Virus record (IMG/VR): IMGVR_UViG_3300047444_000753
Span: 69,256-133,255 of that record
Reading direction: 5' to 3' (one strand)
Source of the DNA: a virus
Lineage: Duplodnaviria > Heunggongvirae > Uroviricota > Caudoviricetes
DNA length: 64,000 bases
Translations under genes and position numbers: made by a program
Notes under the pieces: model-generated
Seen by the model: only the letters and a program-made list of their open reading frames with translations
The model's database searches: none
Told to the model about the DNA's origin: nothing
Shown: piece after piece, positions 6,713 to 35,139 of the stretch
How positions within the stretch are numbered: the stretch's first letter is position 1
Layout of the letters: every line of letters starts with the position of its first letter

Positions 6713-6726
6713 CCTGCTGAGTGAGA

Positions 6727-6750
6727 GGGACATCTCCGGGTGTCCCTCTT
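6727..6750 (+). terminator. hairpin, probable terminator
   Basis: GAGGGACA-TCTCCGGG-TGTCCCTC. Confidence 0.5.
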
Positions 6751-6812
6751 GCGTTGTGTGATACAACCGTGTATGCTGAATACATAAGGAACCAACGACA
6801 AAGGAGCACACC

Positions 6813-18553: not shown

Positions 18554-18656
18554 GCCCTTCAGCATATACCCTTTTACAATTCTTGCAAGGGTTGACACCC
18601 ACTAGATACACCTGTAAACTAGACATATACCAACGGCCACAACAAGGAGAAACACT

Positions 18657-19178
18657 ATGAACTCTGCATCACTCGGCAGCAAGAACCTCTTCACCAACTC
18701 AGCCAACAGCAAAGAACTCAACTTCCGGAACAAGACCAACGACCGGACCTCCGTCTCCTCCATCGAGATCCGCAAGCTGTACCCCACCGGGGGCTGCGAA
18801 AGCTTGGAGAGCATCTCCGTCAAGGAAGAAGACAACGTCGCCATGGCGATCGCGATCCTCGGTGTCGGACGGGTGACTGATGATGTCGAGAGCGAGGCGA
18901 AGATCCGTGCGGAAATGATCCTCGATGCGAACTACGGTCACACCGAGGACGGTGTCCTGAAGCAGGCCATCATCGCACTTCGCTCCATCCTGATCGCCCG
19001 CGAGATGGAGGCAGCTGCGGCCACCAAGGATCTGGACGACGCCTACGCCCTCTACAAGCTGGCCTACCCGAAGACGACCACGGAGTTTGAGAGCTTCAAG
19101 GTTCTCTCCATGAAGGACCACTGGCTCTCTGTCCTGCGTCGGATGCGCAAGGACCCCACGGTCCTCGGCACGTTGTAA
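18657..19178 (+). CDS. hypothetical protein
   Basis: TTGACA promoter 18592, AAGGAG RBS. Confidence 0.85.
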   Translation: MNSASLGSKNLFTNSANSKELNFRNKTNDRTSVSSIEIRKLYPTGGCESLESISVKEEDNVAMAIAILGVGRVTDDVESEAKIRAEMILDANYGHTEDGVLKQAIIALRSILIAREMEAAAATKDLDDAYALYKLAYPKTTTEFESFKVLSMKDHWLSVLRRMRKDPTVLGTL

Positions 19179-19213
19179 GAAATACAAACCCACAACAAGA
19201 AAAGGAATCCACC

Positions 19214-19594
19214 ATGAAGAACATCTACATCACAGGCGACCGCTCCATGGAGCCCTACCTCGCAGCAGGCGCAGTCAACGCCATCCTCAAGGATCTCGTG
19301 CGCCAGAACAACGGCGACCTCGCCATCGGCACAGGCAACTGTAACGGTGGCATCGAACGGGCCGTGCGCTACCTGATCGCGGAGGAGTTCATGAACCTCG
19401 CGCACTACTCCACCGACGAAGACGGCAAGCCGGACTTCGAGTCCACGTTCCGGGAGCTGGAGGACGTCATCGATCAGGTGGTCTTCATCCACACGGATCC
19501 GCTGAGCTCCCGTATCGGGCGAGCAGTCGCTGCCGTGTTCCCCGAGGACAAGGTCTCGATGCCCTTCCAAGAAGTGATGGCAGCTTCGTTGTAA
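19214..19594 (+). CDS. divergent SLOG/YspA-like protein
   Basis: IYITGDRS...GTGNCNGGIE echoes the ITGSR...SGACPSGAD motif of 44511. Confidence 0.45.
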   Translation: MKNIYITGDRSMEPYLAAGAVNAILKDLVRQNNGDLAIGTGNCNGGIERAVRYLIAEEFMNLAHYSTDEDGKPDFESTFRELEDVIDQVVFIHTDPLSSRIGRAVAAVFPEDKVSMPFQEVMAASL

Positions 19595-19606
19595 GAATTG
19601 CAAAAC

Positions 19607-19645
19607 AGAAAACCCCCGGCACCCTCTAAGGACCGGGGGTTCTCT
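19607..19645 (+). terminator. intrinsic terminator
   Basis: AACCCCCGG...CCGGGGGTT stem. Confidence 0.7.
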
Positions 19646-19744
19646 GTGTCTCGTACTCTCAACCACTAGACCCTTAAAGGGTATGCGAGGGTGGGTCTGG
19701 GGTCAAGTCCACATAACTGCATATTACTGTGGTACACTTAATGC

Positions 19745-20242
19745 ATGACACTTACTAAGACTTACCCATTCATGTCCAACCTGATCTTCCAGAATGTCAT
19801 AGTCCATGACGAATGCTGGGAGTGGCAGGGAGTCCAGCGCAAAGGCTATGGCCGGATCTCGGTCGATAGCAAGCAGTACTCCGTACATCGTGTGGTCTTC
19901 GCAGACATTCATGGCCCCATTCCTGAGGGGATGACCGTGCTACACACCTGCGACAATCCTCCCTGTTGTAGGCCTGAGCACCTCAGGCTAGCGACACAGG
20001 CAGAGAATATGGCTGACATGCTGGCCAAGGGTAGGCACGTACCGGGGACGGGAGGGACACCACCCCACGCATTCGGAGTAGGACACGCTAACGCGAAGAT
20101 GACGGACGAGATCGTTCTTGCGATCCGAGCGAGGTACGCAGAGGGTGCTATCACACAGAAGGAACTGGCCACCGAGTTCGCAGTGCACCAGAGCCAAGTC
20201 TCCCGGGCCATCAGTGGTAAGGGTTGGGGCCACCTCCTCTAA
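19745..20242 (+). CDS. HNH endonuclease with C-terminal HTH
   Basis: CWEWQG...GYG...VHRVVF...VLHTCDNPPCCRPEHL...ENMAD; C-terminal TQKELATEFAVHQSQVSRAI; leaderless after TGTGGTACACT. Confidence 0.9.
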   Translation: MTLTKTYPFMSNLIFQNVIVHDECWEWQGVQRKGYGRISVDSKQYSVHRVVFADIHGPIPEGMTVLHTCDNPPCCRPEHLRLATQAENMADMLAKGRHVPGTGGTPPHAFGVGHANAKMTDEIVLAIRARYAEGAITQKELATEFAVHQSQVSRAISGKGWGHLL

Positions 20243-20247
20243 CGCGA

Positions 20248-20628
20248 ATGCGGTACACCCTAATGCGGTTGCGGTCTTAGTGGATGCGGTACACCCTAAT
20301 GCGGTGCACATGGATGCGGTTACGGCTATTAAGGATGCGGTGCCTGCCATGCGGTACTAGTGCATGCGGTGCGGTATCCCGGATGCGGTTGACTAGGATG
20401 CGGTACTAGGGCATGCGGTGCGGTGTTCCGGATGCGGTTGCGGTCAGATAGCATGCGGTGCGGTTGTAGGCATGCGGTGGCCCTCCTTTTGCGGTTAGGG
20501 GCATGCGGTGCGGCTAAGTCGATGCGGTGGCCCTCCTTTGCGGATGCGGTGATGCGGTTGCCGTTTTTGGCATGCGGTGATGCGGTTGACTCGATGCGGT
20601 CGTAAATTGATGCGGTGCGGCATGCGGT
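20248..20628 (+). repeat. array of about 23 same-strand ATGCGGT heptamers
   Basis: Copies at 20248, 20263, 20284, 20299, 20314 ... 20610, 20622; spacing mostly 14-22 bp with variable spacers. Confidence 0.9.
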
Positions 20629-20813
20629 TGCAACTTTTGTAAGTAGGGGTGGTCAGGGGTGGTCAGAGCTCCTCTGTGGGAGAAACCCCCGGCGTGTTTC
20701 AGATGCCGAAAACGATTTCCACCTCAACAAAAACCAATTTTCGATACGTTAGTTGACATCTATGTATGTATAAGATATACTTGATACATACCCAACGAAA
20801 GGAATCAAAGACT

Positions 20814-20942
20814 ATGAAGAAATTTCTCGACTACCAGCTCAACCCGGTGCTCTTCGTCATCGTTTTCATCTACGTGATGACTGACAAGTTCGCCCGGTCG
20901 ATTTTCGTCAAGGATTACAAGCCCAAGCGCCTGTACTTCTAG
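20814..20942 (+). CDS. small membrane protein (42 aa)
   Basis: TTGACA-N17-TATACT (20753-20781), AAGGA RBS, one TM. Confidence 0.7.
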   Translation: MKKFLDYQLNPVLFVIVFIYVMTDKFARSIFVKDYKPKRLYF

Positions 20943-20962
20943 CACACCGACTGAAACTCACT

Positions 20963-21254
20963 AGCGCTATATAAGCGCTATAGAAACACACCAACACAAG
21001 CTCACCACCTCGGGGCGAAGCTCACCAGCTCGGCGGAGGTTCACCACCTTAGCGCTACATAAACACAATAGCGCTAGCGCTTCAGCGCTACACATACACG
21101 CATACGCACACAGGCACATCGCCACACCACCTCGGGAGAGGATCACCACCTCAAATCGTCTCACCACCTCAAGCGCTAGCGCTAACACATAGCGCTTTAG
21201 CGCATAGCGCTACGCGGAGGTTCACCAGCTCGGGAGGGCGAGACTCACCAGCAC
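20963..21254. repeat. alternating blocks of AGCGCT palindromes and CACCASCTC repeats
   Basis: 10 AGCGCT and 8 (T)CACCA(C/G)CTC-like copies in interleaved blocks; non-coding. Confidence 0.8.
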
Positions 21255-21449
21255 ATGGGTTTAGCCCCTTACAAAATTTGCAAGGGGTTAGGGGGGGGGG
21301 GGTGTTGGGTTTTCGATTCCGGGGGGCGGGACCTTCTGGCCGGGTGGGGTTCAGGCCGTCGCCCTACTTCCCACCCGTTTACAATTCTTGCAACGTCTCG
21401 CAAGAATCATAACCAGTGGCCCGGGGCCGTCGCTCCGGTTGATGACTTC

Positions 21450-21588
21450 AGTATTGCATATTCAATTGCACGTGTCAACATATCGCCCTGCCCAACATGC
21501 AGGGCGTTTAGCGACTCCCATAACTCTCCCCTATGGATCTGGAGATGTCAAGTCGCTGCAGGACTTGCGCATTGGTTTACATGCGTGT
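21450..21588. promoter_or_regulatory. divergent promoter pair
   Basis: Minus strand TTGACA(21478)-N17-AATACT; plus strand TTGCGC-N17-TATTGT upstream of 21629. Confidence 0.65.
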
Positions 21589-21628
21589 ATTGTAGAGATA
21601 TCAGCTCAACCAAACCAAGGAGCACACC

Positions 21629-21913
21629 ATGACTGTACAGGTCCGTTACACCGCGTCCGTCGTCAATTTCGACACTGCCGAAACTTTTACGGGCTGGGTT
21701 GATCCTAGCTGGAACCGCTGGGAACTGCGGAGCACGGCGGAAGATGTCCGTACGTTCGAATACGCGGATGAGGCGGAAGCGCTGGCCGCGATTGAATCGG
21801 AGATTGGCGCACCCGATAATTGGGACGGTGAGTCCTATTACGCGGCGGACGCGGCCATCAACTTGGAGTCCGGCGAACACTGGCTGTACGCGGCGCACGT
21901 GACCGAAAGCTAG
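21629..21913 (+). CDS. acidic early protein
   Basis: AAGGAG RBS; 19 D/E versus 4 R in 94 aa; followed by terminator. Confidence 0.85.
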   Translation: MTVQVRYTASVVNFDTAETFTGWVDPSWNRWELRSTAEDVRTFEYADEAEALAAIESEIGAPDNWDGESYYAADAAINLESGEHWLYAAHVTES

Positions 21914-21977
21914 GCCCCCGCGAAAGTACCCCGGCGCTGAGCGCGTCGGGGGCTTTTGCATTTTTTGCAACGGGGCT

Positions 21978-22048
21978 AAAAAAAAGACCCAGAGTGGGCC
22001 TTCCCCGGGACCCGTCTCAGGGCCCCTATCATGTTCGGCTTCCGCCTA
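21978..22048 (-). ncRNA. putative small RNA (family 1, copy A)
   Basis: Minus-strand TTGACA(22084)-N18-AATAAT, three hairpins, T8 tract; no ORF; homologous to 23221-23296. Confidence 0.5.
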
Positions 22049-22238
22049 TACTCAATTATTGCATACAAAATACACACGTGTCAACCCCTAAACCAGACTT
22101 GCGTATCAACATATACCCGTGTACAGTATAGGTATCAGCAACGGAGTAAGGGCCACGGGCCAGACTCAACCGGCGCTGACCAACACTTTACAGGTCCCAA
22201 CGCCTGACCGCTTATCCGCTAGCCCAAGGAGTCTTATA

Positions 22239-22499
22239 ATGTTTGCAAAGCAGATCCGCATCCGTCCGCTACACCTCCCCACCGCGTGGAGTGTCGTACT
22301 GTTGCTGCTGATCCTCCCGGCCCTGTACGTCGAGCTGACGGGAGATTTCCCGGGCCGCGTGTGGTTCTACGGGCAGGAGGAAGATAGCGAGCTGGCGGGC
22401 GTATTCCTCAACGCTCACAACTACATCTTTACAACTCTTGCAACCACGTGGGACGTCGTCGGACGGCTTGCGGGCAGCGTCAAAGAATTCTTTGCCTGA
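22239..22499 (+). CDS. membrane protein
   Basis: AAGGAG RBS; TM helix; start codon overlaps a TTATAA-N3-TTGCAA site. Confidence 0.7.
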   Translation: MFAKQIRIRPLHLPTAWSVVLLLLILPALYVELTGDFPGRVWFYGQEEDSELAGVFLNAHNYIFTTLATTWDVVGRLAGSVKEFFA

Positions 22500-22561
22500 C
22501 GGGTTGACATCCGTATACCTTATGCCTTAGACTAGTAGTACACCAACAAAGGAGAAACACC

Positions 22562-22888
22562 ATGGCAAATCTCACCGCTACCCCCAAAGACCTCACCTCG
22601 GCCATCGCGGCGCTGAACGGTAAGAGCGTCCGGAAGATCGGGAACAACACGGAGCTGCGCTTGGAAGTGACCCCCAAGGGCCGTAGCGTCGTGGCCACGC
22701 TGCACGGCAACAGGATTGTCCGCTATGAGGCTGACGGTGTCTACGTGAGCTGGGCAGGTTACACCACCAGCACCACCCGTGACCGGCTGAACCAGCTCTC
22801 CCCGGCCCGATTCAACATCGCCGGACGCCTCCCCCACATCGACGGCGAAGAGGTATTTAGCCTCGAATGGGTCAAGGTCACCAACTAA
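22562..22888 (+). CDS. conserved-type phage early protein
   Basis: LHGNRI...WAGYTTSTTRDRLN motif; own promoter, RBS and terminator. Confidence 0.85.
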   Translation: MANLTATPKDLTSAIAALNGKSVRKIGNNTELRLEVTPKGRSVVATLHGNRIVRYEADGVYVSWAGYTTSTTRDRLNQLSPARFNIAGRLPHIDGEEVFSLEWVKVTN

Positions 22889-22963
22889 CCGGGACGCCCG
22901 GGGTCTAACAAGCCCCGGGCTATCCGCCCTTACAATTCTTGCAATTCTTACAAAGGAGACATC

Positions 22964-23152
22964 ATGTCGGCACTAATCGTGAACCACTCACAGACTGTGG
23001 CGGAACGGCTCGAATACATCCGGGGCGAGATTGAGGCGGAACGGGTGAGCTACTGGGAGATTTCGGAGCTGCAGGGACTGGCGGCTTTCATCGACCCGGG
23101 CGACGTGCTGCTGCTGGAGTGGGCAGGAGTCCCGGAATTCCCGGAAGACTAG
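22964..23152 (+). CDS. small acidic protein
   Basis: AAGGAG RBS, downstream terminator hairpin. Confidence 0.8.
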   Translation: MSALIVNHSQTVAERLEYIRGEIEAERVSYWEISELQGLAAFIDPGDVLLLEWAGVPEFPED

Positions 23153-23220
23153 CCTAAACAAATATCCCCCGGCGCTACGGCGTCCGGGGGTATTTGCGTT
23201 GCAATTTTTGCAACGGGCCT

Positions 23221-23296
23221 AAAAAAAAAGGGTCAGACTCGGCCTACCCCCCGACCCCGCTGCAGGGCCGATATCTACGGGCTGCTTGCCCGTCTA
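23221..23296 (-). ncRNA. putative small RNA (family 1, copy B)
   Basis: Minus-strand TTGACA(23331)-N18-TAGAAT, hairpins, T9 tract; no ORF. Confidence 0.5.
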
Positions 23297-23421
23297 CTTC
23301 AATTCTAAGGCATAACGTATACAGATGTCAAGCCCAAAAGAAATAAAAGATTATCGGGTTTAGGGCTTGCGTAGGGGTTTACATGCATGTATAGTAGATA
23401 TTACCAACGAAGGAGAACATC

Positions 23422-23598
23422 ATGGGAATGACCCGAAAAACTCAGCAGGAAGGCGTTATCTACGTCACGCCTAACCGGGCAGTATTCGCATCGCCGGACG
23501 GTGAGGGCCGTGTCTGGTTTGACACGGTCAACGAAGCTAAGGGCGAAACGGGCCTGACAAAAGTTGTCTACTTGCTGGAAGCGCCGGAAGACTACTGA
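23422..23598 (+). CDS. hypothetical protein (58 aa)
   Basis: TTGCGT-N17-TATAGT promoter, AAGGAG RBS. Confidence 0.8.
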   Translation: MGMTRKTQQEGVIYVTPNRAVFASPDGEGRVWFDTVNEAKGETGLTKVVYLLEAPEDY

Positions 23599-23675
23599 GC
23601 AACCGGGGCCGGGTGGACATTCTGCCCGGTCCCGTGTATGCTAGAACTACCAACAAAGAACAAAGGATATGCAAA

Positions 23676-24308
23676 ATGGTCTTCCGTCTTGATAACACTC
23701 TCACCGAACCGCGCAACGTTGTGTACGCTGCTAAGCCTAACTCGGCGCGTATCCTCGACGTGTACCGTCAAGCGACGTTGCAGGAATTGCAGGATGGGCT
23801 TGATTGGTACCGTGACGCTCACGCTATCGCTGCTGCACTGGATCCGGCGCGGCCTCACGCTGCAGCGGGCGTACTGGCGGCGCTCTCGCCTATGCAGAGC
23901 TGGGGGCAGAATGTAAACCTTGCAGCGCGGGCCTACGCTGACGGCAGCGCCACGGGCACCCTGTTTCGTAACTGCGCCAAAGCTGACGCGATTATGGCCG
24001 GTGCTGAACCGCTCGACGTGTTGCGCGGGGATAAGGTTTGCAACTTTTACAAAGCTATTGCAGATCCCCACGACGGCGGCGCTGTAGTGATTGACCGCCA
24101 CGCGTTTGATATCGCGGTAGGCCGGATCACTAACGATAAGTCCCGGACGGCACTGGGCCGTAAGGGCGTCTATGACGCGTTCGCTAGGGCCTACGTACGG
24201 GCAGCTAAGGCCGTGTCTGTAGAGACTGGGCTGGACGTATCGCCCTGTCAGATGCAGGCGATAACGTGGACAGTCTGGCGGCGTCTCAAGGGCCTTGACG
24301 GACTGTAA
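23676..24308 (+). CDS. phage early protein, possibly HhH DNA-glycosylase-like fold
   Basis: GLDWY...AALSPMQSWGQN...KVCNFY...VVIDRHAF...AY..AA...PCQMQAITW. Confidence 0.55.
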   Translation: MVFRLDNTLTEPRNVVYAAKPNSARILDVYRQATLQELQDGLDWYRDAHAIAAALDPARPHAAAGVLAALSPMQSWGQNVNLAARAYADGSATGTLFRNCAKADAIMAGAEPLDVLRGDKVCNFYKAIADPHDGGAVVIDRHAFDIAVGRITNDKSRTALGRKGVYDAFARAYVRAAKAVSVETGLDVSPCQMQAITWTVWRRLKGLDGL

Positions 24309-24382
24309 GAATTGCAACGGGCCGGGGTAGACAAACTATCTCGGCCCGTGTATGCTTAGAGTACCAACAAAGGAGAAACACC

Positions 24383-24697
24383 ATGTGGATGAATGAATAT
24401 GAAATTGAAGACGCGCTGCGACTGACGGCCCGTTTTGAATTGCCCGTCGCACGTCGGGCCGCTGAAATTCTTTCGGAGCTGAAAGACTGGACCAATGATC
24501 ACTCGGACGGGTGGCCCTACTGGCAGAAACCTGCTAAGGCCGCTGACAAGCTCATGACGGCCCTGCAGTCTGCCATTGGCGCTAGCCGTCAAGGGGACAA
24601 CGTAGACATGACGGAGGCGCAACTCAAGGCCGCGCTGACGCCCGTCAAGTCATTCCTGACCCGTCACGGCGCTGACCACACGGAGGTAATCAAGTGA
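24383..24697 (+). CDS. hypothetical early protein
   Basis: Promoter plus AAGGAG; NDHSDGWPYWQKP motif. Confidence 0.85.
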   Translation: MWMNEYEIEDALRLTARFELPVARRAAEILSELKDWTNDHSDGWPYWQKPAKAADKLMTALQSAIGASRQGDNVDMTEAQLKAALTPVKSFLTRHGADHTEVIK

Positions 24698-24978
24698 ACA
24701 GCATTCCGGGGTTTGCATCGGCCCAACGGCAGTGGGAGAACATGGAGCCGGACTGGGCAGACGAGTGCATCTGTGAACCGCGCTATGAATGTCCCGACTG
24801 TGGATCCGATCACTACAAAGAATCGGATCTAGACACGCCCTGCACGTGGGAACACTGCGACGGACGCGGCGTTACAAAAATTGTAACCGTGGAACACGGT
24901 ACGCCGGTTGCAGGATGTCGGGAACACGGATGGTGCACCGGCTGCAGTAGCCGGAACTGTGAGGACTGCAACGGCTAA
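24694..24978 (+). CDS. Cys-rich protein
   Basis: Several CxxC pairs; GTGA overlap. Confidence 0.75.
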   Translation: MNSIPGFASAQRQWENMEPDWADECICEPRYECPDCGSDHYKESDLDTPCTWEHCDGRGVTKIVTVEHGTPVAGCREHGWCTGCSSRNCEDCNG

Positions 24979-25052
24979 AAGAATTCTGGCGGGGGACTAG
25001 ACATTAGATCCCCCGCCGTGTATGCTTAGAGTACCAACAAAGGAGATACACA

Positions 25053-25307
25053 ATGGCAAAGAATCAGCCCATGGTAGTAACCGTCAACGCCGACACGGCA
25101 CACCGGACGGTCACCGTCGTTATCGAGCACGCCGACTGGCAGAGCTTTACCCGGGCCGTCCAGCCCCGGGCAACCAAGGAATTCAAGCGCTGGGTATCTG
25201 AGAACATCATGTTTGGGAACCTGCTCCACACCCGGTCATCACTTGGTTGGCACGACGTGCGCAACGAGTCGGGCCGCTGCCTGTCGTTCATGACCTACAC
25301 GTACTAA
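25053..25307 (+). CDS. hypothetical early protein
   Basis: Promoter plus AAGGAG RBS. Confidence 0.85.
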   Translation: MAKNQPMVVTVNADTAHRTVTVVIEHADWQSFTRAVQPRATKEFKRWVSENIMFGNLLHTRSSLGWHDVRNESGRCLSFMTYTY

Positions 25308-25382
25308 CCGGGCGGGCCGGGGCCTACGGGTCCCGGCAGCACGTCTTACAATTCTTGCAATACCAACAAACAAGGAGTCACC

Positions 25383-25580
25383 ATGGCAGAGCTTCAGGCA
25401 TCCATTGAGGTCACTAGTTCCCGGTTCACTGATGCACGGCGGGTACGAATCGTAGTAGACAGTATCACGGCGGTTGGAGATGAGGCCAATGGACGTGGCT
25501 TTATCACCACTGCGGGTGGTCAGCATTTTACTGTCATGGAGTCCTATGACCAAATTTTGGCGAAGATAGCCGCCGCCTAA
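25383..25580 (+). CDS. hypothetical early protein
   Basis: AAGGAG RBS. Confidence 0.8.
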   Translation: MAELQASIEVTSSRFTDARRVRIVVDSITAVGDEANGRGFITTAGGQHFTVMESYDQILAKIAAA

Positions 25581-25660
25581 CCGACGCGGGCGGGCCTTGC
25601 AAAAGTTGCAAGAGCCCGCCTAGCCGGTGGGTTGACAAGCCTGTATCTTTATGCGAGAAT

Positions 25661-25782
25661 TGAAACATGAAGCGGATATCCCCGGGAGGGATAAGCAGGG
25701 AAACCAGAGCTGCCCTAAAACGGGGCGGGTTATTTTTGGGGTCCTCTGGTGACCCAGCTTCAATCGGTTGCTTCATACTTCA
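25661..25782. ncRNA. convergent pair of homologous short transcripts (family 2)
   Basis: Plus TTGACA(25632)-N17-GAGAAT and minus TTGACA(25811)-N17-TAAAAT, both followed by TGAAnn-ATGAAGC. Confidence 0.45.
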
Positions 25783-25898
25783 ATTTTACAGACAACATAC
25801 ACAGATGTCAAGCGAAAAGAAATATTGGTTTGGACTTGCGTGAGGCTGTACATGGGTGTATAGTAGAGGTATCAGCAAGGGACAACCGAGGAGTCAAA

Positions 25899-26231
25899 AT
25901 GACTGCATGGATCATCACCAAAGACAAGATCGAATCTGACGCCAAGGGCGTGACCGGCCCGGGTATGGCGACGGACAACGACGTCAAGCGCCTGCAGGCC
26001 GGTGAGGGCGTCCGTTTCCGGATGCTGGACGACGACGGCGAGATCTATTACTACGGGCGGCAGCTGGAGACGTCGGACTGCACTGGGGCCTATGAGGATG
26101 GGTACTACGGAGCCGAGTCGGAATTCGCCCCACTGGATAACTTCGGACGTCCCAACGCCGGGTGCACCGAGATCCAGTTTGACCGGGGCGCAAAGGACGC
26201 CAAGGGCAAAGTGATCTGGGAGTCTTTGTAA
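25899..26231 (+). CDS. conserved-type phage early protein
   Basis: FRMLDDDGEIYYYG...FAPLDNFGRPNAGCTEI motif; promoter and RBS. Confidence 0.85.
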   Translation: MTAWIITKDKIESDAKGVTGPGMATDNDVKRLQAGEGVRFRMLDDDGEIYYYGRQLETSDCTGAYEDGYYGAESEFAPLDNFGRPNAGCTEIQFDRGAKDAKGKVIWESL

Positions 26232-26307
26232 AAACTGCAACGGCGGTGGGGTTGACACCTCACCGCCAACGCGGTATGCTTATAGTACCAACAACAAAGG
26301 AGTAGCT

Positions 26308-26580
26308 ATGAAGCTCAAGTACACTGAATTCCGTCCGAGCGTCAACCGCTTCAGCGCGGAAGAGACGTCCGCCGAGATCCACAACGTAGACGAGTTCACC
26401 AAAGTCGTGTTGAAAGAGGTCGGCACGTGTCTTGAATTCGAGTCCCACGACGCGGCGCACAAGCTGCTGGACTGGCACCGGGAAGTCTATGGCACGGGCA
26501 AGCTGACCGTTGGTCAGAAGCTGGTCCACAACTACGGGACTGGACTGGATCCAGTCGGCACGTGGGAAATCATTAGCTGA
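26308..26580 (+). CDS. hypothetical early protein
   Basis: Hairpin promoter, AAGGAG RBS. Confidence 0.85.
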   Translation: MKLKYTEFRPSVNRFSAEETSAEIHNVDEFTKVVLKEVGTCLEFESHDAAHKLLDWHREVYGTGKLTVGQKLVHNYGTGLDPVGTWEIIS

Positions 26581-26635
26581 TTGCAAACTTTGCAAGGGGG
26601 GCCTACGGGCTCCCCTTGCTTGCGTAGGAGGAACA

Positions 26636-26839
26636 ATGGATAGGTCTGGATGGTGCATGAAGATGCCTGTAACCGAGTCGAATCAGGCCGAGCATGACGG
26701 ATGCCCTGAGCACTTTCAGACGCGCTCATGCGCCTGCACGTGTGGGCATAAGGGGTCGAGGTCACTGGAGAGTCGGGCCATGGTCTTCCAGCCACGGCTG
26801 ACGCCCAAACCGCTAAGGGTTGACAACGATGTACCATAG
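26636..26839 (+). CDS. small Cys/His protein
   Basis: AGGAGG RBS; HDGCP...CACTCGH. Confidence 0.65.
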   Translation: MDRSGWCMKMPVTESNQAEHDGCPEHFQTRSCACTCGHKGSRSLESRAMVFQPRLTPKPLRVDNDVP

Positions 26840-26886
26840 GGCTTATGCTTGATACACAAGCTAACCGCTACGCCTAGGAGGGCACC

Positions 26887-27210
26887 ATGACTGAGTCCGC
26901 AGACATTGCAAAGATTACAACCAAGCTGGAAATCTTTGCGGACACAAGTATCAAGCGGATGCAGGTCACGTGTCCCAACGGACGCGGCGTGAGCATTATC
27001 CGGGGCTATGGGACGTACGGAGCTACTGCGGGACTCTTTGAGGTGGCCGTGCTGGACTTTGATGGAAATCTGGACTACTCCACGCCCATTACCGATGACG
27101 TACTGGGCTGGCAGTCACCCGAGGATGTCCGGGCCGTTGTGGCGGCAGTGGCAGCACTTCCGGGCCGTGAGATTGAGGCACCGGCTGGACGGGGCGCTAT
27201 CGAGGGCTAG
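26887..27210 (+). CDS. conserved-type phage early protein
   Basis: NGRGVSII...GLFEVAVL...YSTPITDDVLGW motif; promoter and RBS. Confidence 0.85.
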   Translation: MTESADIAKITTKLEIFADTSIKRMQVTCPNGRGVSIIRGYGTYGATAGLFEVAVLDFDGNLDYSTPITDDVLGWQSPEDVRAVVAAVAALPGREIEAPAGRGAIEG

Positions 27211-27270
27211 GGCTTGACCCAGGGGTATACATGGGTGTATGCTTAGAGTACCAACCAAGAAGGAGACATC

Positions 27271-27615
27271 ATGGAACTTCCCATCACCAAAGATCAAGCG
27301 TTCTACCTGAACACGCTGGGCCGGACGGCGCAGCTGTACCGGACAACGAACGAACGGATGCAGCGGGACCTGACGGACAACATGGACCGTCTCAGTAAGG
27401 GTCGAGCCCCGGCTGCAGTCCGCCCCAACGAAGCTGCAGATTTGATGACAGCGGCGGCGCAGATTGACGCGATGACATCCATTGCTTATGCAGTCTTCCC
27501 GTACCCGGATGCATCCGATAAGGCGGCGTATCTGGCCCACCCGAACACAGTACAGGAGTACTTGCAGGCGGCGCTGACGCTGGACGCCATGGACTATATC
27601 CTGATCAAGCGCTGA
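27271..27615 (+). CDS. hypothetical early protein
   Basis: Promoter plus AAGGAG RBS. Confidence 0.85.
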   Translation: MELPITKDQAFYLNTLGRTAQLYRTTNERMQRDLTDNMDRLSKGRAPAAVRPNEAADLMTAAAQIDAMTSIAYAVFPYPDASDKAAYLAHPNTVQEYLQAALTLDAMDYILIKR

Positions 27616-27689
27616 GCAGATTCTCTCGCCTAGTTGGCACCAACTAGGCGGGGGTGTATGCTTAGAGTACCAACCAAGAAGGAGACATC

Positions 27690-28103
27690 ATGAAAGACGT
27701 TGCAAAGATTGAAGCTGACATGCAAGTTCTGATGCAGGACTTGATGGTCATGGACTTTTCAGACCCCAACTTCAGCGAAACCATGGCAGCTGTCAGCGAG
27801 CTGAAGAAGGAGCTTGACGCGGAACGGACGCGCATTGGGGACGTGAACGCCGCCAAGTACCTGCTGAGCAGGCACGGCTACGCCTTCAAGATCTTTGGCC
27901 CGGAGGACGTCGAGCGGCACCTGTTGTCCATGGAAGACAATGACGGCGGCGGACGGGAGATTGCAAAAATTGTAGATCACGTCGTGAACGGGGATGACTG
28001 GCAGACCATGGCCGACGTCACCGACGCAGACGAGGCGAACATCTGGGCCTTGATTGAAGGCACCCGAGGTGACCACCCGGAGTGGTTCGGGCCGGAAGAA
28101 TAA
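27690..28103 (+). CDS. acidic early protein
   Basis: Hairpin promoter plus AAGGAG RBS. Confidence 0.85.
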   Translation: MKDVAKIEADMQVLMQDLMVMDFSDPNFSETMAAVSELKKELDAERTRIGDVNAAKYLLSRHGYAFKIFGPEDVERHLLSMEDNDGGGREIAKIVDHVVNGDDWQTMADVTDADEANIWALIEGTRGDHPEWFGPEE

Positions 28104-28271
28104 CCGCTACGCGCCTAGGGTTGACACTACAGCCCTAGGCGTGTATGCTAGTAACATACCAACGAACGAAGGACACACCATGAACATTACAGCTGGGGGG
28201 TTTGTATTCTTTGTAAAGACTACTGAGACACCTGAGACGAACACCAACACCACCGAACGAAGGAACACAAA

Positions 28272-28454
28272 ATGAGCACTCCGACATCACGCGCACGTCA
28301 CCGGGACAACGCAGCCAAGTTGGGGAAATTCCAGCTGGCCATGACCGAGGGCTTCCGGATGGTCAACGCGTGGATGGACACCACGTCGGGACAGCTGACA
28401 CTTATCGGAATTGTGGGCGCGGCGCTGCTGCTGGCCATGACTATCAAGCCATAG
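28272..28454 (+). CDS. small membrane protein
   Basis: AAGGA RBS, C-terminal TM. Confidence 0.7.
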   Translation: MSTPTSRARHRDNAAKLGKFQLAMTEGFRMVNAWMDTTSGQLTLIGIVGAALLLAMTIKP

Positions 28455-28646
28455 GGCTTGTGTCACCATGTATATGGTGATACACTAAGAGCATAAACCA
28501 AACATAGAGGACCGGACGGGTGAGAGAATCCCCGTCCGGTTCTTTCAATTGTGACGCGTTTCACTCCCTTTTGATGCTATACTATAGGAAATACAGCCGC
28601 CCCGACATCCGTTGGGTGTGGCTATTCTTGTTTAGGGGTGGACAGC

Positions 28647-29018
28647 ATGGATAAAGCGTTTGAGGGCTTCAGTTCCTTCATAACGGCTATCGGTCCAGCT
28701 GGGTACCCGACGTCGATTCTCGGCGGTGTACTGATGCTCTTCTTCTACTTGCGCAAGCAAGAAGCCGGGATGCGTACTGAGATTGTGGCGTCTTTGCAAC
28801 GTTTGCAAAAGGACAAGGAAGCGCTGCAGGCGAGGATTGATGCACTGCAGCTGAGGATTGACACGCTGCAGAAGGAACTGGACTCCCGGGACGATGACAT
28901 TGATGCACTACGCATGCAACGCAGGGAGCTAGAAGACAAAGCGTATAATGAATCTAGGCGTGCTGACTCCGCGTTGGAGCAGGTACGGAAACTGCAACGG
29001 GCAAAAGAATCGGACTGA
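28647..29018 (+). CDS. membrane protein with coiled coil
   Basis: N-terminal TM plus heptad repeats; extended -10 (TGCTATACT) upstream. Confidence 0.75.
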   Translation: MDKAFEGFSSFITAIGPAGYPTSILGGVLMLFFYLRKQEAGMRTEIVASLQRLQKDKEALQARIDALQLRIDTLQKELDSRDDDIDALRMQRRELEDKAYNESRRADSALEQVRKLQRAKESD

Positions 29019-29019
29019 C

Positions 29020-29346
29020 ATGGGACTACACAGTGATCTAGAAGCGTTGGGGGCGGCTCTGCTGGTCCGTAGAACGAAGGTTCTATATGCTGCAGTCGGC
29101 CTACTGTTGTTCGGAACACTGGGCATGATCGTACAGGCAACGGAGAGCTCTAGCGCAGTCGGGGTCGTTGCTCCAGCTCTGTCGGATGCTTGCAAAGATT
29201 ACAAATTCTATGTCGGACACGTCGAGGCCTGTGGAGCTGCAGCACAGATCACGTCAGATCCGTCCACACCTCCGAGCCCGTCGCCGACATCGGACACCAA
29301 TGTCATCGCCGACGTGGCCCCCATAACCACTACCGTAAACCGCTAG
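29020..29346 (+). CDS. membrane protein
   Basis: TM helix, two Cys, Pro/Ser/Thr tail. Confidence 0.7.
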   Translation: MGLHSDLEALGAALLVRRTKVLYAAVGLLLFGTLGMIVQATESSSAVGVVAPALSDACKDYKFYVGHVEACGAAAQITSDPSTPPSPSPTSDTNVIADVAPITTTVNR

Positions 29347-29353
29347 GAACATC

Positions 29354-29758
29354 ATGACCATGACCATGGACACCACTGCACTACTGAACATTGTGACGGC
29401 AGCTGTCGTCGTCGCCTCACCACTGCTGACATCCGTTTTCACGCATACTGGGATGTCTTCCCGGACGAAGAACACCATTGCAATGGTTGTAAGTCTTGTA
29501 ATCGCCGTAGTGTACGAAGTATTGACCGGGGGCATCACAGACTGGACCAACATCCTCATTGCTTTCCCCGTCGTGTACGGGCTGCAGCAAGCTGTCTATA
29601 ACACGCTGCTGAAGGCTCTGGCGACGAGTGTTGAGGCGACGGTGGGTGTAGCGCCGAAGGCGGACGCAGGGACGGTGCAGGCGGTCACTACGCAGGCGTC
29701 GGACGGCTCCGAGGTAGTCGTGGCAGCTCCCGTCGAGGAGACACCGGCCATGGGCTAG
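29354..29758 (+). CDS. holin-like membrane protein
   Basis: Three TM segments with PLLTSVF...SSRTKNTIAMVVSLVIAV pattern typical of actinophage holins. Confidence 0.55.
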   Translation: MTMTMDTTALLNIVTAAVVVASPLLTSVFTHTGMSSRTKNTIAMVVSLVIAVVYEVLTGGITDWTNILIAFPVVYGLQQAVYNTLLKALATSVEATVGVAPKADAGTVQAVTTQASDGSEVVVAAPVEETPAMG

Positions 29759-29889
29759 TCGTCAGGAATTCAGGGCGTTAGACGGGATCCTACGGGGTCC
29801 CGTTTTTCGTTGGTTGACACGGGGGTTGACGGCGCGGTATGATTGATGCAGGCGCTCTATAGGCGCAACCAACTGATAGAGGAGACAAC

Positions 29890-30438
29890 ATGTGGATCTT
29901 TACCACTGAAGGATTTATTAGCGCGGTGCAGGACAGCACGGATGATGAGAAATTGGTTATCCGAGCCCGTGACCGGAAGTCTCTTGAGAGCATGCTGCAG
30001 ACTATCGAGCTTGCTGGGGAGGCTATCAACCGGGACGCCGAGGAAGGTGTCGAGCCCGTGGTGTTCGGCCCGTACAAAATTGAGACGGGCAAGGGCACAG
30101 ACTACAGGTGGCGCGTGTCCGGGATTGATCGGGGGACGTTCGCCCTGTTCATGCAGTTCGAAATCATGAATTTCCTGCAGTACACCAATTACAAAAACGC
30201 CCTCACGGAGAGTCGAGGCAAGGTCTACCATGACGCAGCTATGCGCGTGTGGGTGGACATGCTGGCCGTTGACGACGGGGTAAAGATTCCCGGGCGTCAG
30301 TGGGACTTGTCCGGCGCAGATTGGGACGAGGATGAGCCCTCATGGGAGGAGATCCGTGCCATGGAGCTGGAAGACGGCGCAGGGCCTGAGACGGACGAAG
30401 AGTTCGCCGAGCTGATGTCCGAGGCTCCCAATGCTTAG
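29890..30438 (+). CDS. conserved-type phage protein
   Basis: MWIFTTEGFISAV...LVIRAR...DYRWR...YTNYK motif; promoter and GAGGAG RBS. Confidence 0.85.
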   Translation: MWIFTTEGFISAVQDSTDDEKLVIRARDRKSLESMLQTIELAGEAINRDAEEGVEPVVFGPYKIETGKGTDYRWRVSGIDRGTFALFMQFEIMNFLQYTNYKNALTESRGKVYHDAAMRVWVDMLAVDDGVKIPGRQWDLSGADWDEDEPSWEEIRAMELEDGAGPETDEEFAELMSEAPNA

Positions 30439-30601
30439 GGATGTCCGCTGGTTTGTAATTTTTGCAACCGTCCTGATGGTGGGCTCACTGGTGATGGCGC
30501 TGCTGGCCGGAACGACGGTGGCGCTGCAGCTGCTGGCTATCTACGCTGCAGTAGTCGCCGTGTTCCTGCTGCTGGCCGAGGTGCTGGTCCGGCTCAAGTA
30601 A
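30431..30601 (+). CDS. small membrane protein (2 TM)
   Basis: Hydrophobic 56 aa overlapping previous stop. Confidence 0.65.
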   Translation: MLRDVRWFVIFATVLMVGSLVMALLAGTTVALQLLAIYAAVVAVFLLLAEVLVRLK

Positions 30602-30669
30602 CGGGTGTGTCCCGGCCTCACAAGGGCCGGGGCAGCCGGCTTGACAAGTGTGTATGGTGTGGGTAAGCT

Positions 30670-30740
30670 TGAAGCATGAAGCCCACGGGAGCAGGGTCAC
30701 CGGAGCTGCCCGAAAATAAACGGGGGGTGTGAGGGCATGA
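30670..30740 (+). ncRNA. third copy of family-2 short transcript
   Basis: TTGACA(30641)-N17-TAAGCT-TGAAGC-ATGAAGC...AGCAGGGTCACCGGAGCTGCCC; ends at bidirectional terminator near 30740-30765. Confidence 0.45.
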
Positions 30741-30769
30741 AAAAGCCCCGCCGTAGCGGGGCCTTGGGG

Positions 30770-31063
30770 CTAGAAGCCCTTGATGCAGATTGGGCCGATA
30801 CCCTGAGCAACGGATGTCGGGTCCGTCAGCGTCCGTCCGCAGATGAGGCAGACACCCGTCCGGCGTCCGTATTCGGCTGCTTGCTCTTTGGTCATCCGAG
30901 TCTCGGGACGAAGGTTGAAGATTGCGCCCTTGTCATATTCGAACTTGCCCGTGTTGGTGTCGAGCTTCATGGCGTACAGGTTGCCCGATACCTTAGCGGC
31001 CTGAACCTTGAAGGCTCCAGCGTTGCAAAGGTAGAAACCGGGGGTGACGTTGATCTTGGCCAT
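30770..31063 (-). CDS. DUF6011-like zinc-binding protein
   Basis: CLICGRTLTDPTSVAQGIGPIC; AAGGAG RBS; own promoter. Confidence 0.85.
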   Translation of the reverse strand: MAKINVTPGFYLCNAGAFKVQAAKVSGNLYAMKLDTNTGKFEYDKGAIFNLRPETRMTKEQAAEYGRRTGVCLICGRTLTDPTSVAQGIGPICIKGF

Positions 31064-31178
31064 TTTGACTCCTTGGTTGTTTCTTGCTGATGTATCAATT
31101 ATTGCATGCAAGATAGACAGCTGTCAAGCACTGGGCAAAAGAAAATCCCCGCCCTATTGGACGGGGACTCTCGGGGGT

Positions 31179-31427
31179 CTAGAAGTGGATAGCGATGAGG
31201 TTGTGGGGGAGGTAGTTGTTATAGGACGGGGAGAAGATTTCAACCGCGCCATGCTCGGGGGAGATAACGGAGAGGGTGTTGCCCTTGGGGTCGAGGGTGA
31301 CGCGAGGTTCGCCCTTGAAGTGGACGTGGGAGGTTTCGACGTAGATTTCGTCAGCTTCCATGAACTCGAAGATGGCCGGGAGGGACTTGCCAACGGAGAT
31401 GATCTGGTCACGGTTCAGGGTAGTCAT
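31179..31427 (-). CDS. hypothetical early protein
   Basis: Cassette promoter, AAGGA RBS, terminator. Confidence 0.8.
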   Translation of the reverse strand: MTTLNRDQIISVGKSLPAIFEFMEADEIYVETSHVHFKGEPRVTLDPKGNTLSVISPEHGAVEIFSPSYNNYLPHNLIAIHF

Positions 31428-31545
31428 TGTCTGTCCTTTGGTTGTTTCCTGCTGATGTATCTAGTCTAAGACCTGGGATACACACTTGTCAACCCCGGGG
31501 GCAAAAGAAATCCCCCGGCCATGGTGACCGGGGGAATCTTGGGGG

Positions 31546-32241
31546 CTAACCCGCTAGTGTAGCGGTGCAATACTTACCGGAGAGGGTGCACGGTACTTGG
31601 TAGGCGGCGTACAGGTTCCCTTGAATCTTTAGGTCATTCGGGGTGCAGCGGATGACAGTGGTAGAGGCGTAGACACTAGCATCACAGGATGTGATGACTC
31701 CCCCGGTGTAATGCACCACTACGGAGATGAGCGGGAGAGGCTGCGTAACGGGCCGGGGCCGGGACGGGATAACTATTCCGGGGCCACCGGCCATGTTGCA
31801 GAGTCCGGGGGCCTCATGGCCTGTGCACTTGTGGGCGACGGGCGCAGGTTCCGCGTGAGGTGGGACGCGGAAAGTCTGCCCGGAGGCGGATGTCTGGCCC
31901 TTGATGACGGGCGCAGGCTTGACGGCAGCTGTAGGGGCAACGGGTGCAGGCGCTGGGGCTGCTGCAGGAACGACGGGCGCGGGGGCCGTGATGGTGTCAG
32001 CCGGGGGCGTTGCAACTTTTGCAACGGGCTTGGCTGCAGGCTTGAGGGTGTGCTTGACGGGTGTCTTGTGTGTTGGGGCCTTGACTACAGCCGGGGGTGT
32101 GGCCACGGGAGTGGCGAGGCTCTGGGAGATGTAGGGCACGTCGGACGGTGGGACGGGCGCAGCCTGTGGCGTCGAGGTGCAGGCGCTCATAGTGAGGGCT
32201 GCAGCGAGGGCAACGGGGGCGAGAGCTTTGGTGAGGTTCAT
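31546..32241 (-). CDS. lipoprotein with Pro/Ala-rich linker and Cys-containing C-terminal domain
   Basis: MNLTKALAPVALAAALTMSAC lipobox; own promoter. Confidence 0.8.
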   Translation of the reverse strand: MNLTKALAPVALAAALTMSACTSTPQAAPVPPSDVPYISQSLATPVATPPAVVKAPTHKTPVKHTLKPAAKPVAKVATPPADTITAPAPVVPAAAPAPAPVAPTAAVKPAPVIKGQTSASGQTFRVPPHAEPAPVAHKCTGHEAPGLCNMAGGPGIVIPSRPRPVTQPLPLISVVVHYTGGVITSCDASVYASTTVIRCTPNDLKIQGNLYAAYQVPCTLSGKYCTATLAG

Positions 32242-32366
32242 GGCGACATCCTTAATTGGTTTCTGGTATATGTCAAGTGTACCGCTATCATGGACGGCTG
32301 TCAACAGGTGTGTAGGTTGCAAAAAAAAAATAGACCCCGCCTAGTGGCGGGGCCTATCTCTTGGGG

Positions 32367-32753
32367 CTAGGCGTACTGTACTGCAGTCTCCCCGACGCCG
32401 ATGGTGTACACGGCGCGTTCCCCGCGTTCCTGAGCAAAGAACAGGGCTGCTGATACGGAAGTGAAGGCGTCCGAGGCGTCGAGGATCACGCGGCCATCCT
32501 CAATCCACGTTCCGATGTAGGAGTCTGAGGCAAGAACGGACATGCGCCGGATGTAGGACTCGGCGAACTCGGGGGTGAAATCATCCACAGGGACGGAGGT
32601 TTCGGGGACACGGGCACCAGTGATGTCGGTAGCGCCGCCCACGAGGGTGACCGGGGACGTTTCAAGAGTGAGCGTCTTGGGGTTCATGGTTGCGCCGCCG
32701 TCGTTGAGCGTGGCAGAGATGAGGGTCTGGGCTGCTGCTGCGAAATCAGTCAT
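32367..32753 (-). CDS. conserved-type phage early protein
   Basis: YIGTWIEDGRVILDAS...AQERGERAVY; cassette promoter. Confidence 0.8.
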   Translation of the reverse strand: MTDFAAAAQTLISATLNDGGATMNPKTLTLETSPVTLVGGATDITGARVPETSVPVDDFTPEFAESYIRRMSVLASDSYIGTWIEDGRVILDASDAFTSVSAALFFAQERGERAVYTIGVGETAVQYA

Positions 32754-32876
32754 GGCATGTTCCTTTTGTTGGTAGTTCCTGCTGATGTATCAATCATCTC
32801 ATTAATAGATACACTTGTCAAGTAGTCGAGCATAACGGCTAGATTCTCGGCCCGTGTGAGATACACGGGGGCGGGG

Positions 32877-33161
32877 TCACTTTGCATTTTTTGCAAGTCG
32901 GCGCTCAAGCTCGGCGCGGAACAGCTGCCAGTCGTTGGCGTAACGGGGGTCATTTTCATCCTTCATGGCGCGGTAAACCATCTCACGACGGGCGCGGGCT
33001 CGGTTGTCCACAAGATCCAAGATGGTCCACCGGATAGCGACGATAATTACGAACAGGGCAACGACTGCGAAACCAACCAACAGGGCAATGGCTCCAGCTT
33101 CCGAGTGCACGTGGTTTGCATTGTTTGCAATGATGATCGGGAGGATGTTGGTGGGGTTCAT
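32877..33161 (-). CDS. membrane protein
   Basis: AAGGAG RBS; central TM. Confidence 0.75.
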   Translation of the reverse strand: MNPTNILPIIIANNANHVHSEAGAIALLVGFAVVALFVIIVAIRWTILDLVDNRARARREMVYRAMKDENDPRYANDWQLFRAELERRLAKNAK

Positions 33162-33289
33162 GGCGGGCTCCTTAGTGGAATCTTGCTGATGTATCAAGAC
33201 TACAGGTGGGATACACAGATGTCAACACGGGGGCACAAGAAAAGACCCGCCGTGGTGACGGGTCGATTCTTGGGGGTGGGGCGAGGTGG

Positions 33290-33694
33290 TCAGCCTTGAC
33301 GGAAGATGTGCCACTCGTTGGGGTGGGCGACGGACTGCAGCGTGAATTCATTCATGGGAAGGTGGGCGGGCTCATGGTCCAGCGTGGAGACGTACACGGC
33401 GTGCGCAACGACTGCAGGGGCGAAGTTGTAAGTATTGAAAGTTGTCCAAGCCTCACGGGCCGTGACCGGGGACGTGATGTTACAGGTGAGGTTTCCCATG
33501 GTGTGGCAATTCCAGCACGGCTCATCCTCTTCACAACGGGGTGCAGGGGTGGGTGTAGGGGACGGCGTGGAGTCGGGGGCGGAGATTACTGCAGGGACGT
33601 ACGTGGGGGCGGCTGACGGAGCTGCAGGGGCGCAGCCGGTGAGGGCTAGGGCTGCAGCTACGGTGACGGGGGCGAGGATGTGGGCGAGGCGCAT
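33290..33694 (-). CDS. lipoprotein
   Basis: Lipobox LTGC, Pro-rich linker, CEEDEPCWNCHTMGNLTC. Confidence 0.8.
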   Translation of the reverse strand: MRLAHILAPVTVAAALALTGCAPAAPSAAPTYVPAVISAPDSTPSPTPTPAPRCEEDEPCWNCHTMGNLTCNITSPVTAREAWTTFNTYNFAPAVVAHAVYVSTLDHEPAHLPMNEFTLQSVAHPNEWHIFRQG

Positions 33695-33702
33695 AGGGGC
33701 TC

Positions 33703-34266: not shown

Positions 34267-34274
34267 GGAAGTCC

Positions 34275-34406
34275 TTAGCGCCGGGTGGAGAGGTTGGCGT
34301 TGAATTGTGTGAGCATGGCGTTGGTACTGGCCATGATGTCGGCGAGCTGGTCAGCGTCGGCCTGCGAAGTGGTGGCGGGCTGGGGCTTAGGCCTGCGTCC
34401 GAACAT
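34275..34406 (-). CDS. small hypothetical protein (43 aa)
   Basis: AGGAG RBS; fills the gap between neighbours. Confidence 0.6.
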   Translation of the reverse strand: MFGRRPKPQPATTSQADADQLADIMASTNAMLTQFNANLSTRR

Positions 34407-34429
34407 TTTGGGCTCCTAGGTGGTGAGGA

Positions 34430-35109: not shown

Positions 35110-35139
35110 GGCATGTCCTTTTTGAGGGGGTTGTTCTTA

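Follow-up and report, generated by a model that had tools for sequence, protein, structure and literature searches.

Why should the -35 hexamer of an early phage promoter sit at the apex of a GC-rich hairpin, and which molecule would such a hairpin serve? The question is raised by six promoters in a 64,000-nucleotide (nt) stretch of viral DNA, hereafter the window, which corresponds to bases 69256-133255 of the IMG/VR record IMGVR_UViG_3300047444_000753. An earlier note on this DNA had offered two answers: a fused terminator/promoter joint, or a switch based on DNA topology or single-stranded DNA (ssDNA), with the hairpin promoters of phage N4 as a precedent. Our main finding is that the hairpins are best read as RNA 3'-end elements of the upstream genes, acting as weak terminators or stabilisers for which the T-rich -10 region would serve as a poor U-tract, and nested in the promoter of the next gene. 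We give this reading, which is built on sequence comparison, a probability of about 0.68.

The window is part of a single viral contig of 158.6 kb (57% G+C, about 91% complete according to CheckV) that comes from a rhizosphere metagenome assembly. Among the sequencing runs listed as containing it were nine DNA runs from rhizosphere metagenomes and no RNA run. Its closest proteins are those of jumbo phages of Arthrobacter globiformis; for example, its Nampt-like protein is 71-74% identical to the counterparts in Racecar, Mimi, Talia1610 and Atuin. The hairpin-promoters are located within an early-gene block made of small + strand genes to which no function is assigned.

Hairpins centred on the -35 hexamer

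Six inverted repeats are present where the earlier note had placed them (Table 1). A -35-like hexamer occupies the apex of each hairpin, spanning the end of the left arm and the loop, and TATGCT follows exactly 17 nt after it at all six sites. When the region was scanned for promoters of the sigma-70/sigma-A type, the six modules all had a 17-nt spacer and 9-10 matches out of 12; 30 sigma-70-like matches were found in the region, against 8.3 expected. The stems comprise 10-16 pairs closed by loops of 3-6 nt, start 5-11 nt past the stop codon of a co-directional upstream gene, and in most cases stop 1-3 nt short of the T-rich -10. Predicted folds of the + strand RNA range from -23.3 to -32.6 kcal/mol over the six sites (z -4.0 to -6.35). 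From the -10 to the ATG the modules share a near-identical leader (TAGAG-TACCAAC-AAAGGAG), with AGGAG before every ATG; the conserved short leader downstream of the promoter is TACCAACAAAGGAG. The distance from stop codon to ATG is correspondingly uniform, at 77, 74, 74, 76, 74 and 76 nt for modules 1 to 6. A canonical TGn extended -10 was considered and ruled out, the conserved GTG directly abutting TATGCT.

Two details of the earlier description need amendment. The right arm does fill the spacer, except at site 4, where it ends 7 nt before the -10. The stems had been called unrelated, but sites 5 and 6 both contain CGCCTAG/CTAGGCG, and several sites of related phages have a common GGGGTAGACA..CTGCCCC core.

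Table 1. Hairpin-promoter modules, promoters of the same class that lack a hairpin, and hairpins used for comparison (window coordinates unless marked as genome; ORF, open reading frame)
Feature	Position	Strand	Hairpin	Promoter elements	Flanks
Module 1	23604..23642	+	23604-23634, 14 pairs (3 G.U), loop CAT	-35 TGGACA 23614-23619; -10 TATGCT 23637-23642	Upstream stop codon ends 23598; downstream ATG 23676 (DUF7178 gene)
Module 2	24317..24356	+	24317-24349, 14 pairs (2 G.U), loop ACAAA	-35 TAGACA 24328-24333; -10 24351-24356	Upstream stop ends 24308, within a TGTAA-N3-TTGCAA motif; downstream ATG 24383
Module 3	24988..25026	+	24988-25017, 9 + 3 pairs, 1-nt bulge	-35 TAGACA 24998-25003; -10 25021-25026	Upstream stop ends 24978; downstream ATG 25053
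Module 4	26242..26280	+	26242-26267, 11 pairs (1 G.U), loop TGAC	-35 TTGACA 26252-26257; -10 26275-26280	Upstream stop ends 26231; downstream ATG 26308
Module 5	27623..27662	+	Core 27627-27650, 10 perfect pairs, extending to 27623-27654 with 2 G.U	-35 TTGGCA 27634-27639; -10 27657-27662	Upstream stop ends 27615; downstream ATG 27690
Module 6	28108..28149	+	Core 28112-28141, extending to 28108-28145, 16 pairs (2 G.U), into the -10	-35 TTGACA 28121-28126; -10 28144-28149	Upstream stop ends 28103; downstream ATG 28180
Hairpin-less promoter	1720			-35 begins 1697	Upstream ORF ends 1696
Hairpin-less promoter	9218			TTGACA	Stop codon TGA within TTGACA
Hairpin-less promoter	26820..26849	+		TTGACA-N18-TATGCT (TATGCT 26844)	Upstream ORF ends 26839, inside the spacer
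Hairpin-less promoter	27214..27243	+		TTGACC-N18-TATGCT (TATGCT 27238), identical leader	Upstream ORF ends 27210, 3 nt before the -35
Hairpin-less promoter	genome 9444				TGA 1 nt before the -35 (ORF end confirmed for the other four hairpin-less promoters only)
Comparator, other overlap register	6721..6777	+	6721-6752, UCCG loop	-35-like TTGCGT in 3' end of stem; U-rich tail in spacer; TATGCT 6772	After ORF ending 6712
Post-stop GC hairpin	25316..25337	+	UACG tetraloop, 1 G.U; no U-tract	No TATGCT promoter	
Post-stop GC hairpin	26592..26619	+	UACG tetraloop, 1 G.U	No overlapping TATGCT promoter	
Canonical U-tract terminator	genome 53805-53842, outside window		16 pairs, then CUUUUAUAUAU	TTGACA in loop; TATCTT in tail at 17 nt	

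Chance does not account for this arrangement. The promoter class (TTGACA-like, N16-18, TATGCT) has 12 members in the genome. Seven of these have a hairpin, the seventh lying outside the window (genome 63173-63204), while a comparable hairpin at the same offset occurs in 1.6% of random 62-nt genome windows (binomial P ~2e-10). The -35 had been described as always at the loop; this is true of the six sites, but it does not extend to a general rule, as 5 of the 12 promoters of the class have no hairpin. One further apex-hairpin match, at window position 46126, is AT-rich and lies inside the ORF at 46015-47700 (Nampt-like), and was treated as chance.

Two further observations concern the cassettes themselves. 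RNAfold lengthens three of the stems (to 23599-23643, 24314-24355 and 27616-27661) by pairing the upstream GCA of a TTGCAA-like motif with the UGC inside UAUGCU; this could be a coincidence, or a terminator helix lengthened into the -10. Moreover, the cassettes (23636-23675, 24350-24382, 25020-25052, 27237-27270 and 27656-27689) hardly differ over the approximately 35 nt that run from GTATGCT to the ATG, and neither do phages with different flanking genes, as for the gene after the DUF7178 junction in contigs L123 and L129. Such shared boundaries could act as homologous linkers for gene shuffling.

Recurrence in relatives and position at gene ends

Searches with megablast and blastn against phage records gave just short coding matches to Arthrobacter phages, and no close relative. 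When IMG/VR was searched with a degenerate promoter-leader pattern, contig L001 was the sole true relative, nearly all other matches being single and due to chance. Contigs L121, L123 and L124 were recovered from Joint Genome Institute (JGI) metagenomes by means of a promoter-leader word, and contigs L125-L135 by the DUF7178 homologues that they encode, which are 66-90% identical to the window protein.

Across the relatives' set we counted 46 distinct promoters of the class, 25 of which have a hairpin whose apex is the -35. The spacer is 17 nt long in every one of these 25, and their loop begins 0-4 nt into the -35. The same module is found in at least 10 consecutive early intergenic regions of the cultured Arthrobacter phage Talia1610, in the order stop codon, TTACAA-N3-TTG(A/C)AT, -35-centred hairpin, -10 and TACCAAC leader; the stems of this phage have AATA at one end and TATT at the other, with U-rich tails after them. 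The more distant contigs L125, L130 and L134 are mostly without the module.

Is it the sequence of the arms or their pairing that is maintained? We built an ungapped alignment (A2) of 13 sites in the same register, taken from the window and six relatives and covering a 13-pair helix. In this alignment 94.7% of the cells are paired, against 81.9% in column shuffles, none of 500 shuffles reaching the observed value; sliding the 3' partner by 1-3 columns lowers pairing to 38-51%. Four pairs vary on both sides (19 cells), one of them being found as G-C, C-G and U-A and another as A-U and C-G. At the junction after the DUF7178 gene, L001 has kept the left arm together with a different right arm, which pairs with it in a new frame. 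The geometry had been said to be selected, with covariation in relatives as the check, and the compensatory changes bear this out: they indicate that the structure of the stem is under selection.

The same alignment bears on the idea that the palindromes are operators for dimeric repressor proteins. They are indeed palindromes, and their overlap with the -35 and the spacer speaks for it. However, the stems differ from site to site, and compensatory substitution preserves pairing rather than a recognition sequence, which makes operators unlikely; in addition, the binding of a protein to duplex DNA would leave the wobble asymmetry described below unexplained, and the niche is already filled by a separate conserved palindrome, TTGCAA-N3-TTGCAA. 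We regard the probability of this explanation as close to negligible.

This separate palindrome (15 base pairs, at most two mismatches) is present in 37 copies against 1.4 expected, all of them within 18.5-35.5 kb (18574-35475) and some of them intragenic. It lies between the stop codon and the hairpin in two modules of the window (24303 and 26226) and in nearly every module of Talia1610. The set looks like an array of operators for a phage regulator.

If promoter and hairpin do not always go together, with which neighbor does the hairpin travel? All five hairpin-less promoters abut or overlap what is upstream of them, and four have the end of the upstream ORF adjacent to them or inside them, so that non-coding room for a left arm is absent. 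The converse situation is seen in L135 and L129, where about 110 nt of extra sequence separate the orthologue of gene 25899-26231 from the next promoter. In both contigs the hairpin has kept its place just behind the stop codon and the TTGCAA motif, with a UACG loop and a real U-tract, and the promoter downstream of that junction has no hairpin. Sequence context thus places the hairpin at the end of the upstream gene rather than with the promoter.

The genome displays a continuum of proximity between terminator and promoter. At one end, separate units with a U-tract followed by TTGACA exist, especially among the - strand genes at 31-35 kb; in the hairpin at 6721-6752 the -35 is in the tail region; and at genome 53805-53842 TTGACA is in the loop of a canonical terminator, which shows the same nesting in fully terminator-like form.

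GC-rich hairpins that are free of a promoter recurrently have a C-UACG-G tetraloop (25316-25337, 26592-26619, 29780-29805, 42854-42875 and, on the - strand, 30765-30742), as do the equivalent hairpins of L135, L129, L001 and L127. The UACG tetraloop is a stability motif specific to RNA and therefore supports a function of the gene-end hairpins at the RNA level.

In the same part of the window, two face-to-face promoters (+ strand 25632, - strand 25811) stand on either side of a hairpin that resembles a terminator (25710-25728). L135 (2500-2600) and L129 (10620-10700) have a conserved block of this region (TTTTTGGGGTCCTCTGG...CTTCATA), but on the other side of the 110-amino-acid gene, and the region may be a mobile small-RNA unit.

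Strand asymmetry of wobble pairs

The strand that a hairpin serves can be read from its wobble pairs: what is G.U (or G.T) on one strand is an A.C mismatch on the other. The arms were scored under a scheme that penalizes every mismatch equally. Over the 25 distinct sites, read on the + strand, we counted 282 Watson-Crick pairs, 35 G.T, 1 A.C and 1 transversion, the lone A.C being an artefact because the bulged site 3 was forced into an ungapped alignment. Talia1610, as an independent replicate, gave 160 Watson-Crick pairs, 15 G.T and 1 A.C. The asymmetry is not predicted by base composition, as local GC and AT skews roughly cancel. The fold of the + strand RNA is more stable than that of the - strand at 23 of 25 sites, the reverse being seen at none; in the window the - strand RNA folds are weaker at all six sites, and with DNA parameters at four of them.

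Canonical terminators, oriented by their U-tract alone, served as a positive control. Those of the + side contain 12 G.T and no A.C, and those of the - side, read on the + strand, 2 G.T and 5 A.C. Since the control terminators have the same signature, the asymmetry reports the transcribed strand. For the hairpin-promoters this is the + strand, in the form of RNA from polymerases that come in from the upstream gene. The downstream transcript would be expected, from sigma-70 spacing rules, to begin some 7 nt past the -10, and would thus exclude the hairpin.

These counts also bear on the two DNA-level explanations. The first is a cruciform, extruded under negative supercoiling, that would hide or expose the -35 and so gate the promoter by topology after injection. 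The repeats are centred on the -35 and have short loops, sites 3 and 5 are nearly symmetric, and folding is possible for either DNA strand (-9.9 to -12.8 kcal/mol for the + strand, -8.6 to -11.9 for the - strand). A cruciform nevertheless needs both arms, and selection is one-sided here, with 35 G.T against 1 A.C in the set of sites and 15 against 1 in Talia1610; near-perfect symmetry is lacking, the - strand arm of sites 1 and 2 containing 2-3 A.C mismatches. The absence of the repeat from 5 of the 12 promoters of the class, and the fact that it follows the gene end in L135 and L129, also speak against gating, which we consider very improbable.

The second is that the hairpin is active as + strand ssDNA, either as a promoter of the N4 hairpin type or as a signal recognized on ssDNA during injection or replication. 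DNA hairpins tolerate G.T, so the + strand asymmetry is compatible with this view. In N4, the promoters of the virion RNA polymerase are hairpins of the template strand, with a stem of 5-7 base pairs, a 3-nt loop near -11 and specific bases, and they are used by a dedicated, injected RNA polymerase. The present hairpins resemble them in being tied to an early phage promoter, but they differ in most other respects: the + strand does not serve as the template for the downstream gene, the stems are variable and have 10-16 pairs, the loop is near -33, and the conserved blocks around them are a standard -35, 17-nt spacer and -10. Nor was a polymerase of the appropriate kind detected: our search of the phage's own genome found no sigma-70 regions 2 and 4, and no T7-like RNA polymerase family, although this is a weak search, as the control for the latter likewise gave no signal. 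We hold an active ssDNA hairpin to be even less probable than gating by a cruciform. Both the topology or ssDNA switch and the N4 analogy proposed earlier thus lack support, given selection on one strand, a preference for the non-template strand and the five promoters of the class that do without a hairpin.

Among ten flanking small genes searched against Pfam and PHROGs, DUF7178 was the sole Pfam match, the other matches being to families of unknown function, and a scan of the window against Rfam returned no family match. A 3039-amino-acid ORF (window 51644-60763) contains an ADP-ribosyltransferase exoenzyme domain (residues 1133-1292) and a NUDIX domain (1373-1485); it is possibly a large multi-domain protein and is not recognisably an RNA polymerase.

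Strength of the putative terminator and proposed nesting of two signals

The fused terminator/promoter joint, the other answer of the earlier note, is the one that the data favor, through the post-stop position of the hairpins, the covariation of their stems, the G.U wobbles on the transcribed strand and the segregation with gene ends in relatives. How good a terminator would such a hairpin be? Among the features of an intrinsic terminator, the stable GC-rich stem-loop, the position after a gene and pairing on the transcribed strand are all present, and a U-tract of 7-9 nt is not. It had been stated that there is no U-tract; a canonical tract is indeed absent, but the 9 nt after the stem include 3-5 U at all window sites except 26242, which has 1.

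Several points weigh against termination, or against the evidence for it. The tails average 3.7 U per 9 nt, and their tail score is 1.1, where random 15-mers score 0.5 and the genome's canonical terminators 3.1-3.8. In favor of termination, mycobacterial RNA polymerase copes with imperfect U-tracts better than its E. coli counterpart, with help from NusG, but it does not terminate at hairpins without U-tracts (Czyz et al. 2014, PMC3993855), which makes efficient intrinsic termination doubtful here. The sites of the relatives are partly paralogous or orthologous copies, so that our counts are not fully independent. Finally, because G.T is also tolerated in ssDNA, the asymmetry excludes a symmetric cruciform more firmly than it does a + strand ssDNA hairpin. 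As a terminator, the hairpin is probably poor. It is the weakness of the tails, together with the mycobacterial data, that leads us to the broader wording of an RNA 3'-end element of the upstream gene, which may be a partial terminator, a 3' stabiliser or both.

It is conceivable that the hairpin does not terminate at all and is a mere 3'-end stabiliser or processing site (a cut of the RNase III type, or a block to exonucleases) in polycistronic early transcripts, as are the intergenic hairpins of T7 early RNA. All the RNA-level evidence given above applies equally to this possibility, and the weak U-tract fits it, as do the post-stop hairpins without promoter at 25316 and 26592, which have no U-tract. 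On the other hand, stems of 10-16 pairs are below the length of classical RNase III substrates, and the position of most stems, 1-3 nt before a T-rich -10, is the geometry that a terminator needs. The equivalent hairpin bears a real U-tract in relatives, and the stems of Talia1610 run into U-rich tails. On balance we consider a purely non-terminating hairpin unlikely.

According to the favored reading, two ordinary signals would be packed in one cassette of about 75 nt. A host-type promoter (sigma-70/sigma-A-like, T(T/A/G)GACA-N17-TATGCT) would drive the small early gene downstream, its activity and start site being predicted from the motif, and the GC-rich hairpin would act in the upstream gene's transcript, which would be read rightward from the preceding promoter. 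Near the promoter, only the spacer of 17 nt and a stretch of 10-15 nt before the -35 are free, so that the core of the -35 would have to form the loop. This core cannot pair with itself and, as a loop, would replace the UACG tetraloop found where loops are free. The stem would end just before the T-rich -10 region (GUGUAUGCUU), placing a poor U-tract where a terminator needs one. Once a polymerase coming from upstream reached the next -10, the hairpin would form; a fraction of the complexes would presumably terminate, and, alternatively or additionally, the 3' stem-loop would shield the upstream mRNA from decay. Each gene would in this way be largely autonomous, and the next promoter would be cleared of read-through polymerase.

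The nesting may have a price. The consensus TTGACA is found at 12 of the 21 sites without a hairpin but at only 5 of the 25 that have one, TAGACA or TGGACA being present at 19 of the 25; nesting thus seems to cost -35 consensus quality, in a comparison that is weakened by kinship among the sites. A stronger proposal is that the nesting is itself functional. Termination on the next -10 would then leave or deliver a polymerase there, in a relay of coupled termination and re-initiation whose hand-over would compensate for a weak -35 (TAGACA or TGGACA); otherwise, a + strand DNA hairpin would modulate the promoter directly. We think it decidedly unlikely that either is the case.

Terminator-then-promoter junctions and suboptimal actinobacterial terminators are both well known. 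The cassettes resemble the tandem terminator-promoter junctions of the same genome (- strand 31535-31511 and 32362-32325, each then followed by TTGACA) in having the same two functions in the same order; in those junctions, however, hairpin, U-tract, 5-20 nt and -35 stand side by side, while they are nested here, with a saving of some 20-30 nt per junction. They also resemble the actinobacterial terminators with imperfect U-tracts (PMC3993855) in having a GC-rich RNA hairpin after the stop codon, G.U on the transcribed strand only and a partly U-rich tail, and in belonging to a host lineage whose RNA polymerase and NusG tolerate suboptimal tracts. Unlike these, the tail is here the next -10 and is weaker than that of any canonical terminator of the genome, and the loop is held by the -35, with no UNCG tetraloop. 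Extensive coupling of the promoters and terminators of adjacent units in bacterial genomes is claimed in a preprint (bioRxiv 10.64898/2026.08.19.745784), as far as its title and the start of its abstract indicate. The preprint does not seem to use the words '-35 element', 'spacer' or 'terminator hairpin'. Our literature search, which covered this most relevant source through its title and the start of its abstract, found no description of a -35 hexamer in a terminator loop, nor of such nesting recurring cassette by cassette in the early region of a phage.

On the favored reading, these cassettes would illustrate the degree to which two transcription signals can be condensed by a phage, with the -35 as loop, the spacer as right arm and the -10 as tail. 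Their uniform size of 74-77 nt would make each small early gene a semi-autonomous unit. For annotation, the rule would be that a hairpin with a -35 at its centre, if found in the early region of an actinophage, is to be read as a gene-end RNA signal, and the asymmetry between G.U and A.C offers a quick test of the strand and the molecule that a hairpin serves. As the cassette is present in cultured Arthrobacter globiformis phages, namely Talia1610 and its relatives, it may provide a natural system in which to study how actinobacterial RNA polymerase handles hairpins with poor U-tracts and whether there is a physical coupling of termination and initiation.

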